DNA of 39,587 nt from Oscillospiraceae bacterium (GCA_029098085.1 JAQXNQ010000167.1:1-39587); one strand, 5' to 3'. Positions 14,738-38,811 are shown, numbered from the stretch's first letter. The notes: generated from the letters alone by a model not told the origin. Program-made: numbers and translations.

Positions 14738-14771
14738 CAAAAGTGTCCATGATGGTTCCCGGAGGTGCAAT

Positions 14772-20017: not shown

Positions 20018-20031
20018 CAGATTTCACCTCA

Positions 20032-21378: not shown

Positions 21379-21391
21379 GCCGATCGCTCCT

Positions 21392-22717: not shown

Positions 22718-22724
22718 AACCTCC

Positions 22725-23027
22725 TTATCTGCGCAGGATCAGAGCACGGCCGTTCACGGCGTCTTTCAGATATGCGTCCATCAGGGTCAGGGCAGTAAAG
22801 TAGCTGCGGCCCGGCCGCATTCGCTGGATCTGGATCACCGAGAACTCGCCCTGGCGGAAGTTCGCCGTCTCGCCGGTATCCAGATAGCTGCGCAGCAGGG
22901 CGTCCAGCCGCGCGTCCATCGTGTCATGATACTCCTGTGCCCGCTGCTGCACCGCCTGGGGAGCCCAGAACGGGTGCTCCCGGGTAAGCAGGGCCTCCAA
23001 TTCTTTCTGTGTCACCAATTGCAGCAT
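22725..23027 (-). CDS. Small (100 aa) cytoplasmic protein, first gene of the minus-strand operon (hypothetical; possible chaperone, immunity or adaptor role)
   Basis: ATG 23027 lies 8 nt after GGAGAG. The longer ORF to 23375 runs across the divergent promoter region and the XRE gene start, so it is not credible. Its stop TAA overlaps the AAGGAGG RBS of the zincin gene. Confidence 0.6.
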   Translation of the reverse strand: MLQLVTQKELEALLTREHPFWAPQAVQQRAQEYHDTMDARLDALLRSYLDTGETANFRQGEFSVIQIQRMRPGRSYFTALTLMDAYLKDAVNGRALILRR

Positions 23028-23157
23028 GGAATTCTCTCTCCTTTCTTTTGCTTCAATTATAACAGGGAAGAGTTTTGAATGGAATCGGCAAAAGCGACAA
23101 ACCGGATATGCAATTTCACACAACATCAATAAATTTGATAATTCTTCATAAAACATC

Positions 23158-23185
23158 TTGCTTCTTCGTGTAAAAGTGGTAGAAT
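23158..23185 (+). promoter_or_regulatory. Sigma-A-type promoter candidate for the 10-gene plus-strand operon
   Basis: TTGCTT (23158-23163), then a 16-nt spacer, then an extended -10 TGgTAGAAT (23177-23185). It lies about 45 nt upstream of the GTG start at 23230, within an AT-rich intergenic region. Confidence 0.5.
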
Positions 23186-23229
23186 GGAGGTATAAGAAAT
23201 GCAGTATGTACATGGGAGGAGATGGTACA

Positions 23230-23595
23230 GTGAGCGAAAAAGAGCTTGTCCAGGAAATCATCATCCTGCGCGGCCGACGCGGCTGGACCCAGCAGGAGCT
23301 GGCGAACCGCATCGGTACGACCCAGCGGACGGTGGCTGCCTGGGAATCGGGCAATTCGATTCCCCGCAAGGCCATGCGGGTGCGGATCGCACAGGCATTT
23401 GAGCTGCCGGATGATTATTTTCTTGGGAATCTATTGACAGATACAAAGAGTACAGCTGAAAAGAGTGCGGCAAAAGAACAACAGGATACCGCTCAGCTGC
23501 TGGATAAGTTCAGTTCAATGCTGGACAGCGAGGGCCTGTCGGACGAGAAAAAGACCATGCTGCTGGATTCGGTCAGCGAGATCCTGCAGAAATAA
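23230..23595 (+). CDS. XRE-family helix-turn-helix transcriptional regulator
   Basis: GTG 23230 lies 8 nt after GGAGGAG. The HTH is RGRRGWTQQELANRIGTTQRTVAAWESGNSIPR. It is followed by a short helical C-terminal region. Stop is TAA. Confidence 0.85.
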   Translation: MSEKELVQEIIILRGRRGWTQQELANRIGTTQRTVAAWESGNSIPRKAMRVRIAQAFELPDDYFLGNLLTDTKSTAEKSAAKEQQDTAQLLDKFSSMLDSEGLSDEKKTMLLDSVSEILQK

Positions 23596-23623
23596 CAGGA
23601 AAACAACAAGGAGGAACCTTACC

Positions 23624-25174
23624 ATGGAACCGATTATTGCGCTGGATTTTGGAAACTGTTATTCGTTTCCCTGCTATATTCCCGAGCTGGACATCTCTGT
23701 CAGCCGCCTGGGAGGCAAGCCGGTGGACCTGCTGCCCAGTGATATGCACTACGGCTATCCCAGCGTATTCTTCTATTCCCGGCGGGCAGCCGAGCGCTGC
23801 CGGAAGAATGGACAGCAGCTGCCGCCCTGGTGCGGTGCTGACGCGGTGAAGGCCAAGGCCTCTCCGGAGGGCAACCGGGTGCGCAACCTCAAGCGCCATC
23901 TGGGAGAGCCACTGGTGCTGGACGACTGGAAAGGCAGCTATGACGATGCCATCGTTCAGCTGATCCAGTATCTGATGCGCCGAGCCAACGAGGTGCTGCG
24001 CACCGAGGCGCTGGTCACCACCCACCGGCTGGCGCTGTCCCATCCGGCCACCTACACCCTTTCCCAGCGCATCCATCTGAAAAACCTGGCCGAGCAGGCC
24101 ACACTGGAGGACGGCACCCACATCCAGGTGGTGGGGATGATTGATGAGCCGGCCGCCGCCGCTCTGGATTATCTGGTGGAAAACGGCCGCGGCGACCAGG
24201 ACACCACCGTGCTGGCCTATGATCTGGGAGGCGGCACCTTTGATCTGGCCATTGTGTCGGCCTATCCCCAGGGGCGCACCAGCGCTTCCGGCAATCCCTA
24301 TTATTATCGCGTTGAGAAGACGGGCGGCATCTCCAGTCTGGGCGGCTCGGACTTTGATGAGGTCATGCTGCAGCTGCTGAAGGCCAGGATTCCCGCTTCA
24401 AAGCCGGTAGACGAGGATTCGCTGCGCCGGCTGGCTGAAACGGCCAAACTGGAGCTCAGCCGCGACCCCGACACGGAGCAGGAGATCTACACCAAGTCCG
24501 GCGAGGCACTGTTCGTTACCGTCACCCGGCAGGAATTTGAAAAGGCAGCGCTGCCGCTGGTACAGCGTACGGTGGAGGAAACCCGCCAGATGCTGAAGGA
24601 GTACAGCGGCAAGCAGCCCGAGCTGCTTGTGCTGACCGGCGGCGCCAGCCAGATGCCGATGGTGCAGCGAGAGCTGGAAAAGGCCTTTCCTCAGTTTAAG
24701 GGTCACATCTGCCTCTACCGTCCCAGCAGGGCCATCGCCTACGGCGCCGCCCGCTACAATACGCCTCTGGAAGAGAACTGTGTGCAGCGGTGCGTTCCCC
24801 GCGATATCGGGATCCGCTATTATCATGGCAACAGCGACAAGAAGTATGTCGAGACCTATATCCCGGCCGGTACAGAGCTGCCTTTTGCCAGTGCATACGA
24901 TACTTCCACGACCCGGGGACCGGATGTTCAGTTCTCCTACTTCGCGGTGATGGAAGCCAAAGTCAGCCACCCGGACCAGGAAGCCCCCGACCGTGACTAT
25001 ACCGAGATCCTGTCGGTGACGCTGGATCATGGCAGACCGGTGCCGCAGGGTACCCCGTCCGAGGCCCGGCTGGTGCTGGATCAGAACGGCCTGCTGAGCG
25101 TGGAGGCGCGCGATCCTTCCAAGCCGGATAAGCCCCCGGTCAAAAACAGCTGCACATTGAAGAATCTGAGCTGA
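23624..25174 (+). CDS. Hsp70-family ATPase A (actin-fold NBD plus beta-sandwich SBD-like region, no helical lid)
   Basis: ATG lies 8 nt after GGAGG. Motifs are IALDFGN (phosphate-1), EPAAAALDY, DLGGGTFD (nt 24221-24244), GGSDFDE and LVLTGGASQMPMVQREL (adenosine motif). The C-terminal approximately 130 aa resemble SBD-beta (RDIGIRY...IPAGTELP...LVLDQNGLLSVEA). Confidence 0.85.
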   Translation: MEPIIALDFGNCYSFPCYIPELDISVSRLGGKPVDLLPSDMHYGYPSVFFYSRRAAERCRKNGQQLPPWCGADAVKAKASPEGNRVRNLKRHLGEPLVLDDWKGSYDDAIVQLIQYLMRRANEVLRTEALVTTHRLALSHPATYTLSQRIHLKNLAEQATLEDGTHIQVVGMIDEPAAAALDYLVENGRGDQDTTVLAYDLGGGTFDLAIVSAYPQGRTSASGNPYYYRVEKTGGISSLGGSDFDEVMLQLLKARIPASKPVDEDSLRRLAETAKLELSRDPDTEQEIYTKSGEALFVTVTRQEFEKAALPLVQRTVEETRQMLKEYSGKQPELLVLTGGASQMPMVQRELEKAFPQFKGHICLYRPSRAIAYGAARYNTPLEENCVQRCVPRDIGIRYYHGNSDKKYVETYIPAGTELPFASAYDTSTTRGPDVQFSYFAVMEAKVSHPDQEAPDRDYTEILSVTLDHGRPVPQGTPSEARLVLDQNGLLSVEARDPSKPDKPPVKNSCTLKNLS

Positions 25175-25205
25175 CCACAGGCTGACAGGAAAGGTGGTTT
25201 TCCAA

Positions 25206-26792
25206 ATGTACGATATTTTTGGCTGCGACATCGGCAACGGGTTCGCTTTTGTGTCGCTGATCCCCGGGCCGGACAGCGATGCCCAGCCCATGCTGCCGGT
25301 TTCCCGCGACCTGAACCCCAACGAGGGGATGCCCACTGCCGCCTATGTCACCCCGCCCGGCGCCGACCCCATTCTGGTGTACGATGCCGACAGGGGAACG
25401 GCCGCCCGCAGCATCCGCCGGGATCCGGCCCACGGTGTGCGGGCGGTGAAGACTCACCTGCGCCGGGCCGCCCTGGAGATGGATGGGCTGGACAGCCCGC
25501 TGTCGCCCTACGCCGTCTACGGCGCGGCGGCCCGGGATCTGGTGCGGCTGGGCAACCTGCAGCGGGCTGCGGACGGCCTGCCTCCTATCTACCGGCTGGT
25601 GCTGACCTATCCGGCGGCCTTCTCCAATTACAGCGACGAGCTGGAGATTCTCAACCGGATGCAGGCGGCGGTGGAGGCGGTCAGGCTGGATGACCATCCG
25701 CTGCAGGTGGTCGGCCGTCTGCCCGAGCCGGCAGCGGTGGCCATCGATTATCTGTACTATATGCAGCATCAGCTGCCCGAGGACCAGAGATTGAAAGACG
25801 ACCAGTTTACCGTACTGGTGTTCGATCTGGGCCATGGTACCTTCGACGTGGCCGTTGTCACGGCCCGCAGCAAGGGCGAGCCCTATCAGGTATGGGCCAG
25901 CGATGGGCTGCCCGACGTGGGCGGAAAGGATTTTGACGCCCGCCTGATGGATGAGCTGCTGGAGATGATGCAGCAGGAGGGCTATCAGCTGCGGGATGCG
26001 CAGGAGCGGGAGGAGCTGCTGCGCGAAGCGGTGGCTGCCAAGCATGAGCTGTCCCGTGACGAGGAGGCCGTTGTCCGTCATCAGAATCGCCGGAACGGTT
26101 CGTATATGGAGCTGACCATTACCCGTGCGCGGTTTGAGGAGATCACCCGCGACCTGCTGCTGCAGGTGGTGGAAAAAACCCAGCAGATGCTGCAGGATCA
26201 GCTGGCCCGCGGCCGAACGGTGGACAGCATCGTCCTGTCGGGCGGCGCCAGCCAGATGCCGATGGTGCGCAGGGCACTGGAGGCCTATATCCAGCCGGCC
26301 GTGCCGGTGCAGCCCCCGTTCCGCCCCAGCAGAGCCGTGTCCTTCGGCGCTGCCCGCTATGGGCTGGGGCTGTCTGTACAGAAAAGCGAGGGCAGGAAGA
26401 AGGAAAAAGACCCCACACCCGCTCCGCCCAACCCGGTGGCTCAGCTGTACACCAGGCATTCCTACGGCGTGCTGGTGGAAACGGCCGACGTGATGGAAGG
26501 GAAGGTTCAGATCCTGCTTCCTGCCGAAACGCCGCTGCCCGCCACCGCCACTTTGGAGGAGTACTGGACCGGCAGAGGGCGGATGGACTGCCGCGTCTAC
26601 CGGCCCCGCACTCGCACCAAGGTCAGGGTTCTGGAGCCCGACAAATGTGTGAACCTGAGATGGCTGCACTTTGATCTGCCGCCGGACACCTATCGCCTGA
26701 CCCTTACAGTGGATCCCAACTATAACATCATTGCCAGGCTGGAGGGCAGAAACGGCACCGTCCACACCGCCAGCACGGCCGAAGAAACCTGA
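25206..26792 (+). CDS. Hsp70-family ATPase B (divergent paralog of A, also lidless)
   Basis: ATG 25206 lies about 9 nt after AGGAAAGGTGG (GTG 25194 is an alternative). Motifs are GCDIGNG, EPAAVAIDY, DLGHGTFD (nt 25824-25847), GGKDFDARL and IVLSGGASQMPMVRRAL. The SBD-beta-like C-terminus includes HSYGVLVE...LLPAETPLP...LTLTVDPNYNIIARLEG. Confidence 0.85.
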   Translation: MYDIFGCDIGNGFAFVSLIPGPDSDAQPMLPVSRDLNPNEGMPTAAYVTPPGADPILVYDADRGTAARSIRRDPAHGVRAVKTHLRRAALEMDGLDSPLSPYAVYGAAARDLVRLGNLQRAADGLPPIYRLVLTYPAAFSNYSDELEILNRMQAAVEAVRLDDHPLQVVGRLPEPAAVAIDYLYYMQHQLPEDQRLKDDQFTVLVFDLGHGTFDVAVVTARSKGEPYQVWASDGLPDVGGKDFDARLMDELLEMMQQEGYQLRDAQEREELLREAVAAKHELSRDEEAVVRHQNRRNGSYMELTITRARFEEITRDLLLQVVEKTQQMLQDQLARGRTVDSIVLSGGASQMPMVRRALEAYIQPAVPVQPPFRPSRAVSFGAARYGLGLSVQKSEGRKKEKDPTPAPPNPVAQLYTRHSYGVLVETADVMEGKVQILLPAETPLPATATLEEYWTGRGRMDCRVYRPRTRTKVRVLEPDKCVNLRWLHFDLPPDTYRLTLTVDPNYNIIARLEGRNGTVHTASTAEET

Positions 26793-26812
26793 GAAGGAGG
26801 CAATGTTGCGAT

Positions 26813-28201
26813 ATGTCAAACTATTCCCATGCTTTGGATGCCCACAGCCGTTTCTGGAAGGATCCCAACCGCCGCAATCCCGGCTGCTGCAGAAATTTTT
26901 ACCGCAAGCTGTGGCAGGGCATTCTGCAGGACTATGAAGAATTCGGCCGCTGTGAATACATCGAGCGGCTGCTGAGCAGGTCCATTGTCAGTATCACCCG
27001 AGTGGAATTCAGCATACTGACAGGGATGGCGAAGGAGGAACCGTTCCTTGATCCTGATAGCCTGGACCGCATCCCCCATATCATCTACAGAGATGGATGG
27101 GGTCAGCGCGACGTTTTCTGGGAAGAGGGCAGTCTCGTTCAGGCCGTTAAGGAAACAGACCTGCAGAACGCCGGTATCATCCGCACCCGGCTCCGCGCCC
27201 AGGCGGCCATCCGTGACAGCAGGATCGACATTCCCATCGGTGGAGATACCCCATCCGCACAGGTTCCTCCGGTGCAGAAGAAAGAGGAGCTTCAGACCCA
27301 ACAAATGATCCGGCAGGCCGAGGCCCAGGCTCAGCAGCTGCTGACTGAGGCCCGGCAGGAGGCCGAGCGCATCCGCGCCGAAGCCGAGGCTGAACGGGCA
27401 CGGCTGAATGCTGACCACGCCGCGCTGCTGGCTGAGGCCCGGCAGGAGGCTGACCGCATCCGCTCCGAAGCTGAGGCTGAACGGGTGCAGCTGAATGCTG
27501 ACCGCGCCGCATTGCTGGCCCAGGCCGACAGTCAGGCCAGACAGCAGGCCCGGAATCTCATCACGCAGCATCTGGCCGATTACCAGCGCCAGATGCGCCT
27601 TCAGTGGGATCGTGACACCGCCGAGGCTGAGCAGCAGGATACCCGGGCGACTCAGGAAATCGACAGCGCCCGCAAAGAAATGTGCGGTACCGTCAACGAC
27701 CTGAAGGTCAGTTGGCGCACCGATCTGGAAAAGGCCATTGAGGAGATGCGCGGACTGCAGACCCAGCTGGAAACCCGTCTGCGCGACTGGCAGCGGGCCC
27801 TGTATCCCCGCGAGTTTGAGCCGCTGGCCGATTGCTACGTTCAGCTGTACCGCATCGTCAATCAGGATCGCCTGCTGGCTGACGCATTGACCGCGGAACA
27901 GGGCGGCGGCAGCAACTATCAGCTGCTGGAACAGCTGAGCAGGTCGCTGTCTGTATTCCTGCGCAAATTTGCCAAAGCCATGGGCCGTCTGGGGCTGCAG
28001 GTGTATGTGCCTGCTGTGGGCGAGCCTTACGATGACGTGCTGCAGGCACCGGACGGCGATGAGCCTGACGATGCGTTTGACAGGACCGTGGCGGAATGTC
28101 TGGTGCCCGGTGTGGTGTACCAGCTGGAAGGCAAACAGGAAGAGGGCGATCCGATCATTCGCGCCGTTGTGCGCCTTGCGCCCGGATCCGGGGAGGAGTA
28201 A
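26813..28201 (+). CDS. Coiled-coil protein with a GrpE-like C-terminal domain (putative nucleotide-exchange factor for the Hsp70 pair)
   Basis: The central part is an E/A/R/Q-rich coiled coil. The C-terminus reads ..FLRKFAKAMGRLGLQVYVPAVGEPYDDVLQAP....VAECLVPGVVYQ....IIRAVVRLA. This parallels the E. coli GrpE pattern (..VVRKFGVEVI...PLDPNVHQAI....V..V.QKGY.LNGR.IRAAMV.V), recalled from memory. Confidence 0.6.
   Translation: MSNYSHALDAHSRFWKDPNRRNPGCCRNFYRKLWQGILQDYEEFGRCEYIERLLSRSIVSITRVEFSILTGMAKEEPFLDPDSLDRIPHIIYRDGWGQRDVFWEEGSLVQAVKETDLQNAGIIRTRLRAQAAIRDSRIDIPIGGDTPSAQVPPVQKKEELQTQQMIRQAEAQAQQLLTEARQEAERIRAEAEAERARLNADHAALLAEARQEADRIRSEAEAERVQLNADRAALLAQADSQARQQARNLITQHLADYQRQMRLQWDRDTAEAEQQDTRATQEIDSARKEMCGTVNDLKVSWRTDLEKAIEEMRGLQTQLETRLRDWQRALYPREFEPLADCYVQLYRIVNQDRLLADALTAEQGGGSNYQLLEQLSRSLSVFLRKFAKAMGRLGLQVYVPAVGEPYDDVLQAPDGDEPDDAFDRTVAECLVPGVVYQLEGKQEEGDPIIRAVVRLAPGSGEE
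27347..27520 (+). repeat. Tandem 87-nt (29-aa) duplication inside the GrpE-like coiled coil
   Basis: Nt 27347-27433 encode EARQEAERIRAEAEAERARLNADHAALLA. Nt 27434-27520 encode EARQEADRIRSEAEAERVQLNADRAALLA. Confidence 0.9.
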
Positions 28202-28204
28202 GTT

Positions 28205-29161
28205 ATGGCATATTCCGGTTATCAGGCTGCGGCCCTGTACGACTTTACCCATCATATGCGGCAGGACAACCTGTCCTTCCCGGTTACCGAGCTGGTGATC
28301 GATGCCGACCGGTGTGCCCTGGGAATCTGCCGCTGTGACGAGGGCGGCGGCATCGCTTTGCTGGAGCAGGCGGAATTGTCCCAGCCCGCGCCGCTGGATC
28401 AGCTCTGGCTGGAGCAGATTGCTGCCGGCTGCGGCGTTTCCGCCCGGGAGGCGGCCGGCCTGCCGGATGAGGCGCAGGCCCAGACCCGTTTGTGGAACTA
28501 CTACTGCGCCGGACGGCGCTCCGACGCTCCCGCCTTTTCGCTGCCGGACGGCCGCACCCTTTGCTGCAGCCAGCTGGATGCAGCTTTTGCTCCGGTGCAG
28601 GCACTGCTGGATCAGCTGTTGGAACAGGGGCTGCAGCTGCTGGAGCGGCTGCACATCCCCGAAGAGCAGCTGCGCATCCTGACTGTTGGCCGGATGGCCG
28701 ACTGCGCGCCTGTCCGGCTGACACTGCGCGGGCAGCTGTGCTTTGACCCCTTCCTGCCGGATGACCGCTTCGTGGCTCTGCGGGCAGACGAGGATCCCGG
28801 CCGCATCGTGGAGGAGGGAATGCGGCTGCACCAGCAGACCCAGATGATAGGGATCGAGCTGGATCTGCTCTGCACCGACGCTTCCGGTGCAGAGGAGGTT
28901 CTCTGTCTGGCCCGGAGCCAGCAGCTGGCCTCCGCCCTGTCCGATCCCCATTACTGTCCGCCGGTTTTTGTGTCGGCGTCCGAGCCGCTGCGCTTCCGTA
29001 CGGGCGGCCGGGTATGGGAGCAGCCGCTGCCCTACGCAATCGGCCCGCTGGACGGTGACCTGGTGGAGGCAGCCTGCGTTGTGCGGGCCGGCCGGCCGCT
29101 GATTCTGCTGCGCCGAACCCTCGCCCCCACCCGGGTTTATGAGGTGCAACCGCAACTGTGA
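28205..29161 (+). CDS. Hypothetical protein (possibly a degenerate actin-fold/ASKHA-like domain; weak)
   Basis: ATG lies 6 nt after GGAGGAG and 3 nt after the upstream TAA. LVIDADRCALGICRCDEGGG is reminiscent of a phosphate-1 hairpin. RILTVGRMADCAPVRLTL is reminiscent of the Hsp70 adenosine motif. No confident family assignment. Confidence 0.6.
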   Translation: MAYSGYQAAALYDFTHHMRQDNLSFPVTELVIDADRCALGICRCDEGGGIALLEQAELSQPAPLDQLWLEQIAAGCGVSAREAAGLPDEAQAQTRLWNYYCAGRRSDAPAFSLPDGRTLCCSQLDAAFAPVQALLDQLLEQGLQLLERLHIPEEQLRILTVGRMADCAPVRLTLRGQLCFDPFLPDDRFVALRADEDPGRIVEEGMRLHQQTQMIGIELDLLCTDASGAEEVLCLARSQQLASALSDPHYCPPVFVSASEPLRFRTGGRVWEQPLPYAIGPLDGDLVEAACVVRAGRPLILLRRTLAPTRVYEVQPQL

Positions 29162-29175
29162 AGGGAGAAACCAAC

Positions 29176-30390
29176 ATGAATAACCGTCAAAAAAAGCTCC
29201 TGAGCCAGCAGCTTCTGGCTCAGGCCAAGGCGCTGGAGCAGCAGGAGGGCCCCCAGCTGGCTGTTTCGGTGACCGCCGCCTGCAGCGCGCTCCTGAAGGC
29301 GGCGAGTGCTGACGTTGAAACGATGGATCCGGCGTCTTTTGAGAATCTCTACGCCAGTTTTTCCCGTCTTGCCCAGCAGACCGAGGCGTTCTTTGAGGGC
29401 GCTCAGGTCCGGCTGCAGGCCGGGGTGCAGACTCCCGGGCAGGAGCTGTCTGACAAACGGCAGCAGGTCGAACAGCTGCGCGCCCGGTTGGAGGCGGCTG
29501 ACCAGGCCGTTCAGGAGCTGGAACACCGACTGGCTGATGACCGGGCCCGGCTGGAAGAGGCTCAGAAACGGATGACCGACGCAGAGGAAGCCCACAGCGC
29601 CCTGTGCAGGCTGCTTGACGACTGCTCGGACGAAAAGATCGCAGCCCGGCTGGCCGGGAACGAACAGCTCAAAGAGCGCTTTGCCGAGGCCAACCTGCGT
29701 ATGCACACCCTGACTAACGAACATGACCGGCTGCTCCGGCAGCTCCATGAGATCGAAGCCGACATGGAAAAGATACCCCAGCAAAACCGCGAGCTGGTGG
29801 AGCGCTGCGGCGAACAGGAAAAGCTTCTGGAGCGCCTGCGCAATGCTTTTGAAATCTACAGTCCTGAAAAGCAGGCTGAACTCCAGAAGGAGATTGACAC
29901 GCTGAGCGCGTCGGTGGAGGAAAACCAGCAGGCGGCGCAGCTGCTGAAGAGCCGTCTGGATGATCTGCAGGCTCAGCACACGGAATATGATGCCGCCCGC
30001 CAGACCCTCAGCACCAACCTTCTGGATTTGCTGCAGCGCTCGATGGGCGATTTGCAGACCGCGCTGGATGACCACGAAGAAAAGCTGAGCACCATCCGCA
30101 CCCAGGCCGAGACCCTGACCGGCCGGCTTGCCGCCTGTCTGGAGACCCGCCGCCGCTGCAGCGACTGGCTGGATGCCGACATCACGCCGCTGGAGGCGAT
30201 GATCCGGGCGGTGGACCGGCCCGAGGCCGCCGAGCTGCGCCGGACGCTGGATCCCGGCAGCATCCATCAGGTTCAGCAGTTGTACACAGAGATCGAGCAG
30301 CGGCTGCAGCAGCTGGACGACATCCTGAGAAAATGCACCGATGCTGTGCGTTTGGATCAGGGTGCGCTGGATAAGCTGGCTCGCCGCTGA
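29176..30390 (+). CDS. Long coiled-coil protein (hypothetical)
   Basis: ATG 29176 lies 8 nt after GGGAGA. The approximately 400-aa product is Q/E/L/R/A-rich with heptad character throughout (for example QVEQLRARLEAADQAVQELEHRLADDRARLEEAQKRM). Stop is TGA. Confidence 0.7.
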   Translation: MNNRQKKLLSQQLLAQAKALEQQEGPQLAVSVTAACSALLKAASADVETMDPASFENLYASFSRLAQQTEAFFEGAQVRLQAGVQTPGQELSDKRQQVEQLRARLEAADQAVQELEHRLADDRARLEEAQKRMTDAEEAHSALCRLLDDCSDEKIAARLAGNEQLKERFAEANLRMHTLTNEHDRLLRQLHEIEADMEKIPQQNRELVERCGEQEKLLERLRNAFEIYSPEKQAELQKEIDTLSASVEENQQAAQLLKSRLDDLQAQHTEYDAARQTLSTNLLDLLQRSMGDLQTALDDHEEKLSTIRTQAETLTGRLAACLETRRRCSDWLDADITPLEAMIRAVDRPEAAELRRTLDPGSIHQVQQLYTEIEQRLQQLDDILRKCTDAVRLDQGALDKLARR

Positions 30391-30414
30391 CACGCCGGAA
30401 AGCAGGAGAAGGGC

Positions 30415-31011
30415 ATGAGCATCATCTACTATCACATGAAAGAGCCGGCTGTGGATGTTCTGGGCCCCGGCAGGCGGTTCGTGCTGTGGGTGCAGGGCTG
30501 TCACAAAAACTGCCCCGGCTGTGTGGCGGGCGGTACCCACCGCATGGAGGACGGCAAGCCGGTTCAGACCGACGCGCTGGCCTGGGAGATTGCTCTTTCG
30601 GGGGCGGAGGGGCTGACCATCAGCGGGGGCGAGCCGTTTTTGCAGGCTCCCGCGCTGGCCCAGCTGCTTCAGGCGGTGCACCGCATCCGCCCGATGGGGG
30701 TCATCGTCTACACCGGCTACCGGTATGAGGAATTGCTGGCCATGCCGCAGGCAGCCGGGCTGCTTGCGCAGACCGACCTTCTGATCGACGGCGAGTACAT
30801 CCAGTCCCTCGACGACCACCGGGGTCTGCGGGGCTCGTCCAACCAGCGGGTGATCCCGCTTTCTGATGTTTATCGTGAAATCGCCCGCCAGTATGCGGAT
30901 ATCCCGCGCAGACAGCAGGTCTTTTATCATGGGGCGGAGATCCATGAGGTGGGTCTGCCCGACGAACATGGAGCCTATCCCGAGCAGGAGAAAAGGAGCG
31001 TTACAAAATGA
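30415..31011 (+). CDS. Radical SAM protein of the anaerobic RNR-activase (NrdG-like, 4Fe-4S single-cluster) type
   Basis: VLWVQGCHKNCPGC gives a CxxxCxxC motif (nt 30499-30522). A LTISGGEPF SAM-binding motif is present. The size (198 aa) and the tail ..IDGEY......GLRGSSNQRV fit the small glycyl-radical activase family. Its stop overlaps the next start (ATGA). Confidence 0.8.
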   Translation: MSIIYYHMKEPAVDVLGPGRRFVLWVQGCHKNCPGCVAGGTHRMEDGKPVQTDALAWEIALSGAEGLTISGGEPFLQAPALAQLLQAVHRIRPMGVIVYTGYRYEELLAMPQAAGLLAQTDLLIDGEYIQSLDDHRGLRGSSNQRVIPLSDVYREIARQYADIPRRQQVFYHGAEIHEVGLPDEHGAYPEQEKRSVTK

Positions 31012-32543
31012 GTGGAAGAAAAACAACCTATACCAGCATCAGCGTGGATGAACTGATCCGCCTTCGCCGTCAGGCCTGCCAGGCCTCCAGCCTGTCCCAG
31101 TGTAATCAGGCGCTGCAGCAGCTCGCCGAGCGCAGCGAACAGCTGATGCGCCAGCAGCAGAGCCGCATCGACAGCCTGAACTCCACCATCAACGGCCTCA
31201 ACCGCACCATAGCCAGTCAGGACGCCGCCGCCAGCCGTGAACGCCAGCAGCTGCGCACCCAGCTTCAGACTACGATTCAAAACACCAATCAGGCGCTTCA
31301 GCAGATGGCTGCCCGCAGCCAGCAGCAGATGCAGGAGCTGAGCCAGCAGTTCCGGCAGGATCTGGCCGCCCATCGGACCGACACCGCCCGCGCCATCGAG
31401 GAGAGCAACCGGCGGATGGATCAGGCTCTCCAGTCGGCTGTTTCCTCGCTGGAAAGCCAGATCGGCACCGTCAGCAGCCGGATGGACCGGATGGAACAGG
31501 ATCTGGCCGACAGCGCCCGCCGGGTGGGCATCCTGTTCAATTCCAACGCTTCGCTGCTGGAGCTGGCCCGCGAATACGCCGATGTGGCCCGCACCATCGC
31601 CGATGATACCGCCCGCAATTTCCGCACCGAACTGCTGCTGCCCGGACGGCTGGAGCAGGTGCAGGAGCTGCTGCGCACGGCCGATCAGGACATCCGCGAC
31701 GCCGACGGAAAATTCCCCACCAACGCCCCGGTGGCCCGTCAGAGCGCCCGCACCGCCGCCACCGCCGCCATGCAGCTCCATGAGGATATGGTGCGTGCCG
31801 AACAGGCCTGGCAGGCCCGCTATCAGGCTGCCGTTCAGGCCCTGAACGCCGCCGAGGCTCAGATCGAGGCCTGTCGCCGTATCCGGTTCCCCGGTGAAAC
31901 CGCTGAGATCGACGTGGATCGCTGGAGCAACGGCGATCTGTCTGCGCTCAGCACCCGTCAGGCCGCTCTGCGGGGCCAGCTGAACAATGCCGACGGTCTG
32001 TCTGTCGAGGCGCTGGACGGCATCCGACAGGCCGGCGCCCAGCTGGCCAGCGAGGTGCTGGAAACCTCTGAATTTGCTGCCATCGCCTTTGGCGCCAGCC
32101 AGGACCGGGCCGATGTGGCACAGGATGTGGCCGACTCCATGCGGGAGTCTCTGGGTCTGATGATCGTGGATCACGGCTTCCAGAGCGGCGATCAGCGCGC
32201 CGCCCACCGCATCCACCTGAAAAATCCCCACACCGGCTTTGAAATGGTTGTTACCCAGTATCCCGAGACCGGCCCCGACGGCGTGGTGGGCAACCGGCTG
32301 GAATCCGACATTCTGGATTACGGCACCAACAACGAGCAGGAGGGCGACCGGATCGCCTACCAGGCACTGAGCGCTCTGTCCGGTCTGGGGCTGTGCCAGC
32401 AGACGGTGCAGACGGTGCCCGGCTATGAAAACTGTCCCTCCGACCGCCGCCAGCAGACCGATATGGCTGCCTGGCGCCATCAAGAGGCCGAGCTGCCCTG
32501 CCCGGTACACACCCAGCCCGCTGGTCAGACTGCCGTCAACTGA
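31008..32543 (+). CDS. Coiled-coil protein with a globular C-terminal domain (hypothetical)
   Basis: ATG lies 9 nt after AAAGGAG and overlaps the upstream TGA. The N-terminal approximately 290 aa are a Q/R/A/L-rich coiled coil. The C-terminal approximately 200 aa are non-repetitive (..MIVDHGFQSGDQRAAHRIHLKNPHTGFEMVVTQYPE..). Confidence 0.7.
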   Translation: MSGRKTTYTSISVDELIRLRRQACQASSLSQCNQALQQLAERSEQLMRQQQSRIDSLNSTINGLNRTIASQDAAASRERQQLRTQLQTTIQNTNQALQQMAARSQQQMQELSQQFRQDLAAHRTDTARAIEESNRRMDQALQSAVSSLESQIGTVSSRMDRMEQDLADSARRVGILFNSNASLLELAREYADVARTIADDTARNFRTELLLPGRLEQVQELLRTADQDIRDADGKFPTNAPVARQSARTAATAAMQLHEDMVRAEQAWQARYQAAVQALNAAEAQIEACRRIRFPGETAEIDVDRWSNGDLSALSTRQAALRGQLNNADGLSVEALDGIRQAGAQLASEVLETSEFAAIAFGASQDRADVAQDVADSMRESLGLMIVDHGFQSGDQRAAHRIHLKNPHTGFEMVVTQYPETGPDGVVGNRLESDILDYGTNNEQEGDRIAYQALSALSGLGLCQQTVQTVPGYENCPSDRRQQTDMAAWRHQEAELPCPVHTQPAGQTAVN

Positions 32544-32573
32544 CCTTTCACATTCTACCAATAAGGTGATCGC

Positions 32574-35500
32574 ATGCTTAGCAGAAATAATTCTTATTTT
32601 GATCCGCAGCTGTGCATCGACGGGCACTACATCATCACCGGGCGGACAAACGACCGCTTCTGCAGTGACACCCTGGAACTCACTGACATCCTGCCGGTTC
32701 TTCACCATTATCTGCTGTACGAGCAGGGATTCGACGCGGTGTTTTTTCTGGATAACGAGAATATGCTGTTCTGTCTGGATCGGCATTCCTTCGATGTACT
32801 GACCCTGCCGCCGGACGCCCCGGAGGCAGGTGCGGTACGGACCGGTGCGGTGAGTGCCGATGGCCCTTTGGGACGGCGCCGCCGCCGGAATGCCGCGCCG
32901 GAGGCTGCTGCCGGTCGGCAGCAGGACGCCGCCCGTCCGCTGAATATGGGCCGTATGTCGCTGCAGAGCGCCTGGCAGCAGGTGTCGGGTGTGATGAAGC
33001 ATACCGAAGCCCGCTGCGCGCTGGTGATCTCAAACGCCAATATGATGAAGGGCGGCGAGCAGCTGCTACTGGAACTGTCCTCCTTTTACAGCACCAACCA
33101 CAGCGTTGTGCTCTATCTGTTCCGCGAAACCACCCTGAACAACGTGGCTGAGTGGACCACCTTCGCCCGCAATGTGCTGCTGCCCCGCATCACCACCACC
33201 GACCCCATTGCCAACCGGGTGATTTCGCTGTCCTCGCCCAACAGCCGGGAGGTGCGCAATCTCCTGAATCGGCTGCGGTTTGACCCTGGCACCCCGGTGC
33301 CGGTGCAGGCCGGCGACATCCCGGAGCTTGGCAGCATTCTGGCTGCCAGCTGTGCGCGCAATAACTGGGGACTGGTGGATCTGCTCGGCCGGCTGTACGG
33401 TTACGCGTCTGCCCATCCCGACCGGACGCTGACGCTGGATAACTGGCGGGAATACACCGAGGAGACCTCCTACCGCTCGGCTATGGAAGAGCTGGAAGCG
33501 ATGGTGGGACAGGAAAAGGTCAAGCAGCAGCTGCGCGCCATGCGGGCCGACCAGGAGTGCCGGGGCGAGATGCGCATCGAGCCCCTGTCCTCCAGCCGCT
33601 TTGCCCCTCTGCCGGTGTACAACCGGCGGCTGGGCCACAGTCTGAATGTGCGCCTGAAGGGCAGCGCCGGCACCGGCAAGACCACCATCGCCCAGGTTAT
33701 CGGCCGGATCTATTATGATCTGGGGCTCCTGTCCCGGTCGTATGTGCGGGAGTGCAGCGCCGCCGACCTGGTGTCGGGTTATGTCAACCACACGGCTGAG
33801 CAGGTCCGCCAGCTGGTGCAGGAGGCCATGGGCGGCGTGCTGTTCATCGATGAAGCCTATGCACTGATGGACGGCCAGCACGGCCAGGAGGCCATCAACC
33901 AGCTCGTGCACGATATGTCCGCTTACGAAGGGCAGTTCGCCGTGATTCTGGCGGGCTATTCCCACCAGATCGACCAGCTGATGCGCACCAACGAAGGACT
34001 GTCCAGCCGGTTTCCCAACGAGTATGTGCTGGAGGACTACACTCCTGCTGAGATGCAGGCCATCTTTCGCCGGATGGCCGCCCGCGAGCTGCCGCCCGTC
34101 ACCTTCAGCCCGTCGCTGGAAGCGCGGATGGACGACTTTTTTGAGACCTGGGTGAGCGGCAGGGGGCCGAACTGGGGCAATGCCCGTGAATGCCAGAACC
34201 TGCTTCCCGAGATGAAAAAGCTGTGCAGCCTCCGCGAGGCGGCCCTGCAGGTGCGCGGCCGCAGCTACTGCCTTACGGAAGCGGATGTTCCCGAACGGCT
34301 GCGCCACTGTCTGGAGCCCCGCAGCAACGGCCCCAGTGAGACCATGGCCCGGATCGATGCAATGATCGGACTTGGCGGCATCAAGCGGTTTTTGCGCCAT
34401 CTCGTCCAGCGCATCCTGATGGGCGAACGGGAACAGGGCCCCGGCAACTTCATCTTCTTCGGCCCTCCGGGCACCGGCAAGACCACCGTGGCCCGCCAGA
34501 TGGGCGAGCTGCTGGGGCTGCTGAGGGTACTGCCCCGGCGCCATGTGGTCGAGTGCCGCGCTGCCGATCTGCTGAACGGCTCGGTGCAGCTCAGCGAAGC
34601 GGTGGAGTCTGCCCGCGGCGGCGTGTTCTTTCTGGACGAAGCCCATCAGCTGGCTGAAACAGACCATGGTCAGCAGATCATCCGGGCGCTGGTGCCGCTG
34701 GTGGAGGATCCGGATATCCGGGCGGACACCTGCTTCATCTGCGCGGGCTATGCGGACAGAATGCGTCATTTCCTGTCGGCAGACGCCGGCATGAACCGGC
34801 GTTTCCCGCTGCAGAACCGCATCCGGTTTTACGACTATACCGCCGAAGAGCTGGTGCAGATTCTGGAAAAGATGGCCCGTGACCGCGGCCAGGAGCCCGA
34901 TGAGGAATACCTGCAGCGGTCGCTGGCGGCGCTGGACGCGTATATGCCGCGCCGGCCTGCCGATTTCGGCAACGCCGGATTTATCCGGGACACCTTCCTG
35001 CCCGGATCCATCGATGCCCGTACCCGTCGGCTGAATATCCAGATAACCGGTTCACCCGACGCCATCGCCACCGACGAGCAGCTGGCATCGCTGACCGAAC
35101 AGGACCGCAGGCGGCTCACCGCCTTCGACCTGCCCGAAGACTTTGCCCGGATGGCCGGCCCGGTGGGACGCCGCCCGTCCGCCCGCCTGTCTGCCTGGCA
35201 GCGGGTGCAGGCTCTGCTGGGCAAGGACGAGATCATCAGCTTTGCCCGCGCCCGGGCGTTCGGCAGCGGTGAACGGCAGTTTTTTGACGCACAGACTCAG
35301 GGAGGCCTGCACTATGCCATCACCGGTCCGTCCGGCTGCGGCCGTCACACGGCGGTTCGGGCACTGGCCGCCCTGTGGAGGGAGGCCGGCCTGCTGGAGC
35401 GCGATGACGTGATCTTTGCCGGCAACGGCGACCTGGTGGCCGGCTATGTGGGCCAGACCGCCGGCAAGACGCAGCGGGTGATTGAGCAGGCGGTTGGCGG

Positions 35501-37646
35501 CACGCTGGTCATCGAGTATCCAAGCAGCCTGCTGCCCAAAAACAACGAGAACTCCTTTGGCCCCGAGGCGCTGGGCACCATTGCATCCGCCATGGCCGCT
35601 CACTTTGGGGACACCAGCTTCGTGCTGCTGGATACCCCCGAAGGTATGGAAGCTCTGTTCAAGGCCCAGCCCGCCCTGCGCGGTCAGATGGCCCGTATCT
35701 TTGAGCTGGAGGACCTGACCCCGGTTCAGATGGAATCGATTTTCAGGGAAAAGACCCGGGACAGCATGATGTTTGAGGACAGCGTGGAGGAGCTGTTGAG
35801 TGACTTTTTCCTGAACTGGGTCAGCAATCGCGGCGGACTCGGCGATGCCAGCCGCAGCTGGGCCAATGGCATGGAAGTGGATCGTCTGATTGAAGACCTG
35901 AAGATAAACTGGAAAAACTCCGGCGGCCAGGCCGATGAGCAGACGGTCACCGAAAACGGACGCAGCTACCAGCTTGTCCGCCGGCGCATTCTGGCTGCTC
36001 ACTTCCCCCGGAAGGTGCAGCGGTATCTCAAGCGCACTTCGGTGGTATCCGAAAGCGCCCTGCAGGAGTTGCAGGCACTGCCCGGCCTGCACCGGGTGAA
36101 ACGCTCCGTCCAGGGCATCCAGCGGCGCATCCGGCGGCTGGGCCGCACCAACAGCAAGCCGGGCTGTTATCTCTACCTGGGCAATCCCGGCGTTGGCAAG
36201 ACCACCGTGGCCCGTTTGATGGGCGGTGTGCTGCACGCCGCCGGCGTCCTGAGCCAGGGACACGTCATCGAGCGAACCGCCCGTCAGATCGGCGATCAGC
36301 TGAATGAGTTCGACTCCATCCTCAAACTGGCCCGCGGCGGTATCCTGTTTATTGATGAGGCTCACCAGCTGGCTGAGCCGCAGAATTACTGGGGCCGGGA
36401 AATTATCAAGCGCCTGCTGACCGTGCTGGAGGACGATGCGGTGACCAACGCCACCTGTATCATCCTGGCCGGCTATCCCCAGTCCATGATACGTCTGCTG
36501 GAGCAGGATGAAGGTCTGGCCAGCCGGTTCGGCTCCGAAGACAACATCATTGTGTTCGATGACTACACCGCTGACGAACTGATGCAGGTGATGGAGCATA
36601 TGGCGGCCCGGGCCGATCGCATTCCCAGCATCGGCGCGGTTCGTCCGCTGGTCACCAATGAAGAGTTCCGCCGGCATACCCGTGCAGTGTTCGAAGCCGT
36701 GCTGGCCCGCGGCGACCACGATTTCGGAAACGCCCGCTTTGTGCGCACCTATCTGCACGATGCCCTGAACGCTCAGCTGGAGCGGATGGATCGCGAGTAT
36801 GGCGAGATCGACGATCCGCCCGCCGATGTGGCCGATCTGCTGACCGAACAGGACATCCCGGAGCGGTACCGCCATCTGGCGGAGGAATCCCGGCGCCAGT
36901 ATGCGGCTCCGGATCCCGCCCGGATGGACACCCGGCGCGGTGCGGAGGTGGACGAGCTGAGCTACGACGCGGCCTGCGAACAGCTGTCCCGGAGCGTCGT
37001 GCTGCTGGAGATTACACGGGGCGGCCGGAAGACCGGTACGGCCACCGGCACCATTGTCACCTCCGATGGTCTGGTGCTCACCTGCGCCCATGTGATTCGG
37101 GGAGCGGAGCGCATTCGCGCCCGGGTATACTGTCCCGGCGCACCGGGCGGCGACACCCGCTGGTTTGACAGCCGGCTGCTGGAACCGGTGTGCAGCGACT
37201 GTGACATGGCCATGCTGCAGTTGGATGGCAATCATTTTGTGCCCGCGCCGCTGCGCCCGCTGGATCAGCCGCCGGCGGCCGGCGAGCGAACCCTGATTCT
37301 GGGCTACCCGCTGGGCGGCATGCTGGCCGGCGGTGACAGAGACGCTCTGCGCATCAGCAATTTCTCCGGCCGCGTGGCCTCCTGCCAGCTGGTAGGCTCG
37401 GTGGAGCGATGCTATGTGGACAGCACCGGCCTCCACGGCAACTCCGGCAGCCCGGTCTTTTCGATGACGGACCGGCGGGTGATCGGCGTTTTTTCCGGCT
37501 CGATCATCCCCCGTCAGGAAGGCTCGCTGGATGAGTTGAACTATTTCCATCCGCTGCACTATTTCTGGGAGCGGTTTGCCGCCCAGCAGCCGTCTGTACA
37601 ACCCGGTGCGGCAGAAGAGGAGGAGAACAATGGCAGTGAAAACTGA
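32574..37646 (+). CDS. 1690-aa multi-AAA+ (SpoVK/CbbX-type) ATPase fused to a C-terminal trypsin-like serine protease
   Basis: Intact modules: GSAGTGKT/VLFIDEA (Walker A nt 33660..), GPPGTGKT/VFFLDEA (nt 34461..) and GNPGVGKT/ILFIDEA (nt 36180..). One degenerate module has GPSGCGRH/TLVIEYP (nt 35325..). The CbbX-type signature DLV(S/A)GYV(N/G)(H/Q)TA is present. The protease triad is TCAH(1506)V, D(1544)MAMLQL and GNS(1624)GSP (Ser codon at nt 37443). Confidence 0.85.
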   Translation: MLSRNNSYFDPQLCIDGHYIITGRTNDRFCSDTLELTDILPVLHHYLLYEQGFDAVFFLDNENMLFCLDRHSFDVLTLPPDAPEAGAVRTGAVSADGPLGRRRRRNAAPEAAAGRQQDAARPLNMGRMSLQSAWQQVSGVMKHTEARCALVISNANMMKGGEQLLLELSSFYSTNHSVVLYLFRETTLNNVAEWTTFARNVLLPRITTTDPIANRVISLSSPNSREVRNLLNRLRFDPGTPVPVQAGDIPELGSILAASCARNNWGLVDLLGRLYGYASAHPDRTLTLDNWREYTEETSYRSAMEELEAMVGQEKVKQQLRAMRADQECRGEMRIEPLSSSRFAPLPVYNRRLGHSLNVRLKGSAGTGKTTIAQVIGRIYYDLGLLSRSYVRECSAADLVSGYVNHTAEQVRQLVQEAMGGVLFIDEAYALMDGQHGQEAINQLVHDMSAYEGQFAVILAGYSHQIDQLMRTNEGLSSRFPNEYVLEDYTPAEMQAIFRRMAARELPPVTFSPSLEARMDDFFETWVSGRGPNWGNARECQNLLPEMKKLCSLREAALQVRGRSYCLTEADVPERLRHCLEPRSNGPSETMARIDAMIGLGGIKRFLRHLVQRILMGEREQGPGNFIFFGPPGTGKTTVARQMGELLGLLRVLPRRHVVECRAADLLNGSVQLSEAVESARGGVFFLDEAHQLAETDHGQQIIRALVPLVEDPDIRADTCFICAGYADRMRHFLSADAGMNRRFPLQNRIRFYDYTAEELVQILEKMARDRGQEPDEEYLQRSLAALDAYMPRRPADFGNAGFIRDTFLPGSIDARTRRLNIQITGSPDAIATDEQLASLTEQDRRRLTAFDLPEDFARMAGPVGRRPSARLSAWQRVQALLGKDEIISFARARAFGSGERQFFDAQTQGGLHYAITGPSGCGRHTAVRALAALWREAGLLERDDVIFAGNGDLVAGYVGQTAGKTQRVIEQAVGGTLVIEYPSSLLPKNNENSFGPEALGTIASAMAAHFGDTSFVLLDTPEGMEALFKAQPALRGQMARIFELEDLTPVQMESIFREKTRDSMMFEDSVEELLSDFFLNWVSNRGGLGDASRSWANGMEVDRLIEDLKINWKNSGGQADEQTVTENGRSYQLVRRRILAAHFPRKVQRYLKRTSVVSESALQELQALPGLHRVKRSVQGIQRRIRRLGRTNSKPGCYLYLGNPGVGKTTVARLMGGVLHAAGVLSQGHVIERTARQIGDQLNEFDSILKLARGGILFIDEAHQLAEPQNYWGREIIKRLLTVLEDDAVTNATCIILAGYPQSMIRLLEQDEGLASRFGSEDNIIVFDDYTADELMQVMEHMAARADRIPSIGAVRPLVTNEEFRRHTRAVFEAVLARGDHDFGNARFVRTYLHDALNAQLERMDREYGEIDDPPADVADLLTEQDIPERYRHLAEESRRQYAAPDPARMDTRRGAEVDELSYDAACEQLSRSVVLLEITRGGRKTGTATGTIVTSDGLVLTCAHVIRGAERIRARVYCPGAPGGDTRWFDSRLLEPVCSDCDMAMLQLDGNHFVPAPLRPLDQPPAAGERTLILGYPLGGMLAGGDRDALRISNFSGRVASCQLVGSVERCYVDSTGLHGNSGSPVFSMTDRRVIGVFSGSIIPRQEGSLDELNYFHPLHYFWERFAAQQPSVQPGAAEEEENNGSEN

Positions 37647-38706
37647 TCTGTGTCCGGTGTGCGGCCGCCCTGCGGCCATGGAAGCATCCGACGTATGGGG
37701 CTGCCCGGAATGCGGGTTCGCTTATTCGCAGGTCAAGCGGTTTGCAGGCAGCGGCGCGCTGGCAGTATGGCGGCAGGCCGCTGCCAGGGAAAAACGCCGT
37801 CTTGCGGAACGGGTGATCGGGCTGTGTGCCCGGCAGCCGGTATTTGGCTTCAGCGGCGGGTCTTTGACCTTCACCTCGCCCCAGGATGGCCGGCTGTATC
37901 TGGTGGAAGCCGGCGGGGTTCGTCCCCAACGGCCTGAAGTGCGCCAGTACAGTGCGCCCGAAAATGCGCTGCGAAATAAGGTGTTTCTGCTCTCGGACGG
38001 CCGTCTGGAGGCAGAAGGGGACGACGAATACGGCCAGTGCAGAACCGGGAATCTCCATGACATCCGCCGGGTGCTGGCCACACCACGCTGCACCTACGCC
38101 GTCACCAATGAGGGGAATGTGCAGTGCTGCGGCGAGCCTTTTTCGCCCGCCGTGGCCGGTTGGAAAAACGTACAGGAACTGGCCGCCGGCGCCTACCATC
38201 TGGTGGGCCTGACCGGTGACGGGAGGGTGCTGGCGGCGGGCGATATGCTGAACAGCGCTGTCGCTGCCGAGATTGCAGGCTGGCGGGAGATCACCGCCAT
38301 TGCCTGTGCCGGAGATGCCACCATCGGTCTGTGCAGGGATGGCACCGTCCGTTTTGCGGGGCGCCCCGGCGATCCGCGCGAAGCGGTGCGCGACTGGAGC
38401 GGGATCGCGGCCATTGCCATCGAGAGCGTCTACGCGGCAGGTCTGACGGCTGACGGCCGGGTACTGCTGGCAGGCAGAAATTTCAATGATGACCTGGATC
38501 TGGGCCGCAGAGAGGCCGCCGGCTGGACTGACGTGGCGGCCATCACCTGCAGCCGTTCCGGTATTGCCGCGCTGGGCGTGGATGGCTCTGTCCGGCTGGC
38601 CGGCAATATCCGGGACATCGGCAGACTGAAAAGCGCATGGGACTCTTTTTCGGATACGGTGCGCAGCCAGCTGCTGCAGGCCGTTATGATCTTGCCTTTT
38701 GTTTGA
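37630..38706 (+). CDS. Zinc-ribbon plus RCC1-like repeat (beta-propeller) protein
   Basis: ATG 37630 follows GGAGGAG and overlaps the last 17 nt of the giant gene. The N-terminus has CPVCG..x13..CPECG. It then carries about 6 repeats of the type AAGAYHLVGLTGDGRVLAAG, CAGDATIGLCRDGTVRFAG, ESVYAAGLTADGRVLLAG and CSRSGIAALGVDGSVRLAG, plus GDDEYGQC. Confidence 0.75.
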   Translation: MAVKTDLCPVCGRPAAMEASDVWGCPECGFAYSQVKRFAGSGALAVWRQAAAREKRRLAERVIGLCARQPVFGFSGGSLTFTSPQDGRLYLVEAGGVRPQRPEVRQYSAPENALRNKVFLLSDGRLEAEGDDEYGQCRTGNLHDIRRVLATPRCTYAVTNEGNVQCCGEPFSPAVAGWKNVQELAAGAYHLVGLTGDGRVLAAGDMLNSAVAAEIAGWREITAIACAGDATIGLCRDGTVRFAGRPGDPREAVRDWSGIAAIAIESVYAAGLTADGRVLLAGRNFNDDLDLGRREAAGWTDVAAITCSRSGIAALGVDGSVRLAGNIRDIGRLKSAWDSFSDTVRSQLLQAVMILPFV

Positions 38707-38811
38707 GCGGAGCTTTGGTATTGGATAAACGAAAGCGTACACAGAACCAAATCATTATAATCACCCGTCAAACGGGTGATTTGCACAAAGGATAAAAGCC
38801 TTTTCATACCG

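Follow-up and report, generated by a model that had tools for sequence, protein, structure and literature searches.

An NrdG-clade radical-SAM enzyme linked to AAA+ ATPases and a coiled-coil protein in a putative mobile multi-protein system

The radical S-adenosylmethionine (SAM) enzyme described here, referred to as rSAM, is encoded at positions 30415-31011 of a 39,587-nucleotide (nt) stretch of DNA from an Oscillospiraceae bacterium (GCA_029098085.1, JAQXNQ010000167.1:1-39587), the whole of which is called the window below; features lie on its plus strand unless stated otherwise. Judged by its sequence, rSAM belongs to the clade of activases of glycyl-radical enzymes (GREs) as a sister of NrdG with intact catalytic motifs, yet it is not an NrdG proper, because it has a separate position in the tree, an additional C-terminal extension and a leucine substitution at a substrate-facing motif. 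The placement of the family, the integrity of its catalytic motifs, the failure to find a GRE in the regions searched and the conserved genomic linkage are firm. We favour, at slightly better than even odds (roughly 0.55), the reading that rSAM is the subunit of a mobile multi-protein system dedicated to generating radicals, and that its target is a protein partner on which an AAA+ motor works. The predicted core of this system consists of rSAM, a coiled-coil protein (G7) and an AAA+ unfoldase or remodeller with a system-specific N-domain. In the window, the operon adds to this core an RCC1-like propeller, three helical proteins and a pair of Hsp70-like proteins, and the AAA+ protein itself (AAA4) carries a protease.

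The rSAM gene starts with ATG, stops with TGA and encodes 198 amino acids (aa), in line with the approximately 200 aa given in an earlier note on this DNA, which had been made from the sequence by a model and had described an orphan NrdG-like activase. The protein matches Pfam Fer4_12 (E 1e-31) and also Radical_SAM. The CX3CX2C motif for the [4Fe-4S]/SAM cluster lies exactly where that note had placed it, at 30499-30522, with C29, C33 and C36 read from the sequence, and the GGEP motif for SAM binding, also named there, occupies 30625-30636 (residues G71-P74). Across 80 family members, each cluster cysteine is kept in 99%, GGEP in 100%, and both G17 and R21 in 99%. The latter two residues belong, together with G19, to a GxGxR motif, and the position directly before it is leucine in 91% of the family, whereas all seven NrdGs compared and PflA carry N or D there ([D/N]GxGxR). 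The C-terminal extension (30868-31008, residues 152-198) is family-specific: neither NrdG nor PflA can be aligned to it, NrdD-linked NrdGs lack it, and it contains the conserved residues R165, F170, H172, H177, G180 (97% of the 80 members) and P182 (94%). The AlphaFold2 (AF2) model of rSAM, with a confidence score (pLDDT) of 87.6, has a beta-hairpin at residues 167-180 within this extension. The enzyme is thus predicted to be catalytically competent, the active-site architecture of the activase clade being intact at the level of sequence.

The nearest relatives of rSAM are NrdG and then PflA by both NCBIfam and hhalign, which bears out the earlier assignment to the small activases of NrdD- or PFL-type enzymes. 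The top NCBIfam match is the NrdG model TIGR02491 at 102.3 bits, below its cut-off of 126.1; the second NrdG model, PRK11121, scores 69 bits against a cut-off of 199, the PflA model scores 52 bits, far under the PflA cut-offs, and no QueE model in NCBIfam is matched at E<=0.01. A profile built from 19 rSAM relatives aligns by hhalign to residues 7-153 of the 154 residues of E. coli NrdG (probability 99.2, 37% identity) and to PflA residues 7-154 (probability 98.4, 31% identity). PflA is the sole significant relative in the Protein Data Bank (PDB), whether sequences (E 2e-13) or folds (3cb8, E 2e-7 in Foldseek) are compared. Viperin-like enzymes give marginal Foldseek matches (E ~1e-2, TM-score 0.35-0.40), and the PADLOC pVip models give none for rSAM. 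A neighbour-joining (NJ) tree, rooted on E. coli QueE as outgroup and computed without bootstrap, supplies the subfamily placement that the earlier note had proposed as a check: the window rSAM and all fetched AAA-linked relatives form a clade of their own that is sister to the seven annotated NrdGs (E. coli, T4-like phage, C. difficile, L. plantarum, C. butyricum, B. cereus and E. eligens), with PflA and QueE outside. In the records fetched, six of these seven NrdG genes directly adjoin a class III reductase gene, and that of E. eligens adjoins dut.

The likeness to NrdG extends to the minimal radical-SAM core and to the CX3CX2C, GGEP, GxGxR and (R)GSSNQ motifs. In contrast to NrdG, rSAM has about 45 additional C-terminal residues with G180 and P182, leucine in place of Asn/Asp ahead of GxGxR, and a genomic setting in which, over 91 loci, the family never stands beside nrdD and has an AAA+ neighbour in 39 of 41 cases. 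Similarly, PflA (PDB 3cb8, 3c8f, 8fo0) is significantly similar in sequence and fold, but rSAM lacks the C-terminal third of PflA and has no PFL-type enzyme nearby. The Prokaryotic Genome Annotation Pipeline (PGAP) names the long-form family '4Fe-4S single cluster domain-containing protein' and uses nrdG for true plasmid NrdGs, which align just to about residues 15-150 of the window rSAM. In current annotation, family members carry either such a generic name or that of a ribonucleotide reductase (RNR) activase, the latter probably wrongly.

No partner of the kind expected for such an activase was detected. A six-frame search of the window for R[VIT]xG[YFW] found no match in real open reading frames (ORFs) and matches in non-coding frames alone, upholding the earlier statement that no protein of the window carries RVxGY. 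Homologues of NrdD and PflB were sought by phmmer, the queries being the NrdD and PflB of E. coli and a T4-like NrdD. At E<=0.01, none was found in the window, the only part of the host genome covered, or in 91 related loci, each taken with flanks of up to 10 kb on both sides of the family member. The earlier note had also raised the case of an nrdD or other GRE gene just outside the window, and within 10 kb none occurs in the 91 homologous loci. The same pipeline, applied as a positive control to IMG/VR (phage) sequences, placed NrdD directly upstream of 36 of 51 NrdG-like genes, and the empty result in the 91 loci is therefore meaningful. Glycyl-radical motifs that did appear in related loci fell in short spurious ORFs, with the exception of one protein. 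This protein, of 945 aa and encoded directly upstream of the family rSAM in locus L042 (4231-7065, plus strand), carries 'GRIAGY' 41 residues from its C-terminus; position and sequence are reminiscent of a glycyl-radical loop, and the protein has no Pfam family and no similarity to NrdD or PflB.

The genomic linkage of rSAM is conserved. The order of nine genes found in the window recurs in loci L001-L013 with differing flanks, and close rSAM homologues (55-63% identity) occur in this same order in a Fusicatenibacter-like lineage, in Flavonifractor and in a third lineage. A scan of one genome per species gave 80 family loci, which include Clostridia, Bacteroidota, Brocadia, Desulfobacterales, Oscillatoria, Kordia, Chitinophagaceae, Sulfurovum and Coriobacteriaceae, among others; the family spans at least six phyla, Planctomycetota, Desulfobacterota and cyanobacteria among them. 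Among representatives clustered at 50% identity, 5283 relatives of rSAM were found at E<=1e-3, of which 77 reach E<=1e-30. The best 150 are mainly 190-230 aa long, most of them aligning to about residue 183, and near-full-length relatives number at least ~150 of these representatives. The word 'orphan' in the earlier note accordingly holds in that no cognate GRE was found, and does not hold in the sense of a one-off, the enzyme being a member of a large, phylum-spanning sister family of NrdG that is as yet unnamed.

Neighbours were counted by local clustering on the same strand and within 10 kb in the 41 loci with enough flank. An AAA+ gene lies near the family rSAM in 39 of these, a G7-type gene in 33, an Hsp70-like gene in 17 and TerD genes in 7. 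The core partners are thus the N-domain AAA+ protein and the downstream G7, with Hsp70 and protease as variable accessories. The earlier note had called this context atypical for an activase family, which agrees with the AAA+ frequency and with the lack of a GRE in 91 loci; the neighbourhood search that it had suggested returned AAA+ proteins, G7 and often Hsp70-like proteins as recurrent partners, where it had considered that homologues might be unlinked to Hsp70 or AAA+ genes elsewhere. Compact versions of the system are present on plasmids of Calothrix, B. cereus and Acinetobacter. On the B. cereus plasmid (L090, 9965-13774), rSAM is followed by a 151-aa protein, a helix-hairpin-helix protein, a single-module AAA+ protein (AAA + AAA_lid_3) and a 75-aa DUF2997 protein. 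Furthermore, three IMG/VR records classed as viral (L102, L104, L106) hold a long-form rSAM with an N-domain AAA+ gene in place of NrdD, so that prophages or phage-like elements may be further carriers of the system.

G7 (31008-32543, 511 aa) consists of a coiled-coil region and a C-terminal alpha/beta domain. Its start overlaps the rSAM stop as ATGA (31008-31011), the translational coupling that the earlier note had described, and a G7 homologue directly follows rSAM in most loci, the distance from rSAM stop to G7 start being -14 to +19 nt in 31 of 35 cases. The AF2 model of G7 (pLDDT 80.8) has no significant match in the PDB and weak Bet v1/START-like matches, and the sequence profile matches apolipoprotein-like helices alone. 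The extreme N-terminus (31008-31022) is the best-kept part of an otherwise fast-evolving protein; it begins with Met-Ser, mostly followed by Gly, a basic or acidic residue and Lys (MSGRK, MSGEK, MSGES). In type-D loci, the c21 proteins begin with 'MSG[RK]K' like G7, and no homology to G7 is detectable in them by hidden Markov model (HMM). G7 was also considered as a glycyl-radical protein: a 'TVPG[YF]E' motif lies about 37 aa from the C-terminus, and its G472 is kept in at least 90% of close relatives. This reading was set aside because the motif is not kept in more distant G7 proteins.

AAA4 (32574-37646, 1690 aa) comprises an N-domain, tandem AAA+ modules and a trypsin-like C-terminus. Three of its AAA+ modules have intact Walker A/B motifs (363/422, 630/684 and 1203/1257), and one, at about 920-1090, is degenerate; the modules match TIGR02881, TIGR03922 and TIGR02880, of the CbbX/SpoVK/EccA type. 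The trypsin-like serine protease domain (36981-37523; Pfam Trypsin_2, E 2.5e-18), with the motif GNSGSP around S1624, is a candidate effector, and the Pfam matches listed for a shorter orthologue in L006 include no trypsin. Together with the two Hsp70-like genes upstream, this multi-AAA+ protein with its C-terminal protease gives substance to the chaperone/AAA+/protease operon of the earlier description. CbbX remodels a protein by pulling its terminal tail. The AAA4 modules score best against the CbbX/SpoVK/EccA families of remodellers, but they are arranged in tandem with a system-specific N-domain ahead and a protease behind, and in deep-branching relatives the N-domain is instead fused to AAA+ modules of the ClpB-D2 type.

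The signature N-domain of AAA4 comprises about 300 aa (32574-33473). A reciprocal database search with it returned three proteins, a number set by a word-index limit, and local iterated HMMs were used instead; by these, the N-domain heads 56 distinct AAA+ proteins encoded beside family rSAMs. It is common to AAA+ partners of the CbbX/SpoVK type and of the ClpB-D2 type, and this distribution across AAA+ clades argues for a specific partnership between rSAM and N-domain AAA+ proteins, usually with G7. Within the N-domain lies a basic, Gly-containing loop (32862-32960) with GPLGRRRRR at residues 97-105 and PLNMGRMS at residues 122-129. At this loop, P[LFMV]G is present in 18 of the 56 relatives, and others have GL[RK][RK]G[RK] or SPF[GA]xRRR, so that motifs of this type occur in many relatives of the N-domain and not in all. 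As a matter of speculation, this loop is a candidate site of radical attack.

Around the core, the family loci carry modules that vary from lineage to lineage. Pfam matches include TerD and TelA in Ruminococcus-type loci, PP2C with a protein kinase (TerY-P-like) in Bacteroidales loci, and DO-GTPase2 with GAP1-N2/M in Kordia-type loci. In Candidatus Brocadia (L045), G7 is separated from the AAA+ gene by a WD40-TIR protein (12061-15027), and ahead of rSAM stands a Ser/Thr kinase-TPR protein (7224-9821); the plasmid cluster of Acinetobacter encodes a PIN protein. TIR counts as a hallmark effector of immunity. The trypsin-like protease of the window and the TIR or PIN proteins of other loci are candidate effectors, and a fixed core with swappable modules on mobile DNA fits the pattern typical of conflict systems. 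Kaur et al. (2020, eLife, PMC7159879) have described modularity of this kind, with sensors, regulators and effectors, in conflict systems of prokaryotes. Like those systems and the TerY-P triad, the rSAM-family loci pair a nucleoside triphosphatase/chaperone core with variable effectors and accessory modules, and the modules in common are DO-GTPase2/GAP1-N2, PP2C with kinase, Hsp70, TIR and trypsin-like proteins. In contrast, the systems of Kaur et al. (PMC7159879) are defined by MoxR-vWA or GTPase cores; a radical-SAM enzyme is mentioned there once, in an FtsH ternary context, and the rSAM-G7-AAA+ core is not described. A search of PADLOC-DB v2 gave nothing for rSAM or for the gene set, and weak, generic coiled-coil, P-loop and protease matches for the other proteins. 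Full-text literature searches, whose coverage did not extend to a 2012 paper on Ter systems, found no NrdG-like radical-SAM enzyme with AAA+ or Hsp70 partners.

To our knowledge, the NrdG/PflA clade is the one group of radical-SAM enzymes in which every characterised member takes hydrogen from a glycine of a protein, and each of these members activates a metabolic GRE. From this chemistry of the clade, the AAA+ unfoldase next door and the intact active site, we infer that rSAM acts on a protein; the site of attack and a role in immunity or stress are suggested with the same reserve. The reduced [4Fe-4S] cluster of rSAM would cleave SAM to give a 5'-deoxyadenosyl radical, which would take a hydrogen atom from a protein partner, at a segment that is flexible and probably contains Gly; candidate targets are G7 and, in the N-domain of the AAA+ protein, the basic Gly loop. 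The AAA+ motor would either expose the target segment or act on the modified product, and the whole assembly may act as a switch in stress or against invaders, with the variable effector (a protease here, TIR or PIN elsewhere) as its output. Several points weigh against such a role. Neither G7 nor the N-domain has a universally conserved Gly motif, and canonical RVxGY is missing from the real ORFs of the window. With leucine (L16) at the first position of [D/N]GxGxR, the enzyme would have to recognise its substrate differently from known activases. QueE, which shares the fold and is more distantly related, has a small molecule as its substrate. In addition, Acinetobacter, Kordia and cyanobacteria are among the hosts, and we take these to be aerobes in which a glycyl radical would be short-lived. 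The PADLOC result offers no match by which the defence role could be recognised, this role being suggested by context, and the NJ tree is without support values.

Because the family occurs in aerobes, it may be speculated that oxygen-dependent cleavage at the radical site belongs to the switch. A bolder form of the favoured reading, which we hold tentatively and would sooner doubt than accept, is that rSAM is the first glycyl-radical-type activase to serve an AAA+ immune or stress machine and not a metabolic GRE, the radical or the O2-dependent cleavage of the backbone being an irreversible switch that arms or releases an effector (protease, TIR or PIN). If true, radical-SAM protein chemistry would be a signalling step in a widespread, unrecognised prokaryotic conflict system. 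The family of interest here is a sister family that keeps all catalytic motifs and exchanges the GRE partner for protein-unfolding ATPases. Should rSAM act on a protein of its own system, protein-radical biology would be widened beyond catalysis, and bacterial stress or immune systems would gain a new core module. The compact plasmid versions of B. cereus and Acinetobacter make the family easy to test experimentally.

Among the alternatives to a protein substrate, rSAM, like QueE and viperin, may modify a small molecule, whether a nucleotide or some other compound. What it makes would then be a signal or a toxic metabolite, and other components of the system, such as the TerD-type ligand-binding proteins of related loci, would sense or use it. 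We consider this unlikely on balance. The Fer4_12 fold family does include QueE, a conserved Gly target was not found in G7 or the N-domain, the fold search gave its weak viperin-like matches (E ~1e-2), and some relatives reside in TerD/TelA clusters, a type of cluster for which a passage of PMC7159879 cites a link to nucleoside-like metabolites. However, QueE went unmatched at E<=0.01, while NrdG was aligned end to end at 37% identity; rSAM is a minimal, activase-sized core with no evident nucleotide-binding extension; its constant partner is a protein unfoldase and not a nucleotide-handling enzyme; and TerD is found in just 7 of 41 loci. The presence of the family in aerobes and their plasmids, together with the tight operon coupling to structural coiled-coil proteins, could also be accounted for by an rSAM that is non-catalytic in the cell and gates the AAA+ machine as an Fe-S sensor of redox state or oxygen, or as a structural subunit. 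This is quite improbable: GGEP and the other core residues of activases are invariant across phyla, and a loss of SAM chemistry is therefore hard to argue.

Two further explanations start from the kinship with NrdG itself. NrdD-NrdG pairs are common in phages (2101 phage records match, and NrdD stands beside 36 of the 51 IMG/VR hits), and rSAM might be a sensor or decoy that docks on the glycyl-radical domain of an NrdD- or PFL-type enzyme encoded by a phage, or that activates such an enzyme too early or poisons it, and thereby triggers the AAA+/effector machinery, which would suit the variable effectors and the mobility expected of an immune system. We regard it as improbable, since a mere binder would not need fully conserved catalytic motifs, the substrate-facing motif is unlike that of true NrdGs (L16 for N/D), and many hosts are gut anaerobes whose own NrdD would be recognised too. 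That rSAM is simply an ordinary NrdG for an nrdD encoded elsewhere, with an incidental position in the operon, is hardly credible. NrdG is admittedly its best family match, and stand-alone nrdG genes without an adjoining nrdD exist, such as the one beside dut in E. eligens. Against this, the score falls under the NrdG equivalog cut-off, the clade lies apart from the NrdD-linked NrdGs, the C-terminal extension and L16 are specific to the family, AAA+/G7 synteny is kept in at least six phyla and on plasmids, and PGAP gives a generic 4Fe-4S name while reserving nrdG for true NrdGs.

The operon of the window consists of nine genes on the same strand, from 23465 to 38706, separated by a few bases or overlapping briefly. 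A promoter-like site (TTCACA-16-GATAAT, 23115-23142) precedes it as a consensus match only, at 10 of 12 positions, and such sites are no more frequent in the region than in shuffled sequence. The first two genes encode the accessory Hsp70-like proteins A (23465-25174, 569 aa; Pfam HSP70, E 5.5e-32) and B (25194-26792, 532 aa; E 1.2e-31), whose orthologues hold the same position in L001-L018 and L044. They are followed by three genes conserved in 16 loci. The product of g3 (26813-28201) is a 462-aa helical protein without a Pfam family, for which the PDB gave weak helical matches of the V-ATPase subunit E kind and nothing useful; that of g4 (28205-29161, 318 aa) has no match in Pfam, NCBIfam, PADLOC or PDB; and g5 (29158-30390) encodes a 410-aa coiled-coil protein with weak matches to the coiled coils of SMC, Rad50 and JetC. 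rSAM is thus placed between two genes, g5 and G7, whose products are both helical and coiled-coil-like, as the earlier note had it.

Downstream of AAA4, the last gene (37630-38706) encodes a 358-aa protein with a Zn ribbon and an RCC1-like beta-propeller (RCC1_2, E 9e-11) and is syntenic in 17 loci. The mechanically called ORF opens at a TTG inside AAA4 (37576), but the ATG at 37630 is the likelier start: it is preceded by GAGGAGGAG, which resembles a ribosome-binding site, and the resulting N-terminus has a CPVC...CPEC zinc ribbon. From this ATG, the gene overlaps the end of AAA4 by 17 nt. A terminator-like hairpin follows at 38811-38834, with a 10-bp stem containing 7 GC pairs and a weak T tail, again as a consensus match only. 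Scans of the window for Rfam families and for tRNAs were empty.

The GC content of the window is about 54% from 1 to 18 kb and 62-64% from about 18 kb to its end at 39.6 kb. This step at about 18 kb suggests that the high-GC block, which comprises the operon and a TrwB-like block, is a horizontally acquired island. The TrwB-like block is divergent (18761-23375, minus strand) and encodes a 418-aa protein, a TrwB/VirD4-like coupling ATPase (20032-21486) and proteins of 441 and 216 aa. It has the higher GC content of the operon, its homologues lie beside the operon in L010 and L044, with parts of it in L016, L018, L041, L057 and L071, and it may represent either a module that moves together with the operon or a component of the same system. 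At the opposite end of the window, 69-4364 encodes a 1431-aa surface protein of a kind typical of Gram-positive gut bacteria, with leucine-rich repeats, Listeria-Bacteroides repeats, DUF6273 and, at the C-terminus, choline-binding repeats. A transglutaminase-like protein (4573-5697) comes next, and this pair is unrelated to rSAM. Outside the high-GC island there are also a LemA (11182-11757) and DUF2207 (11770-13917) membrane-protein pair on the plus strand, then a DUF4234 protein (to 14311), and a DUF3137 protein (16741-17670, plus strand).

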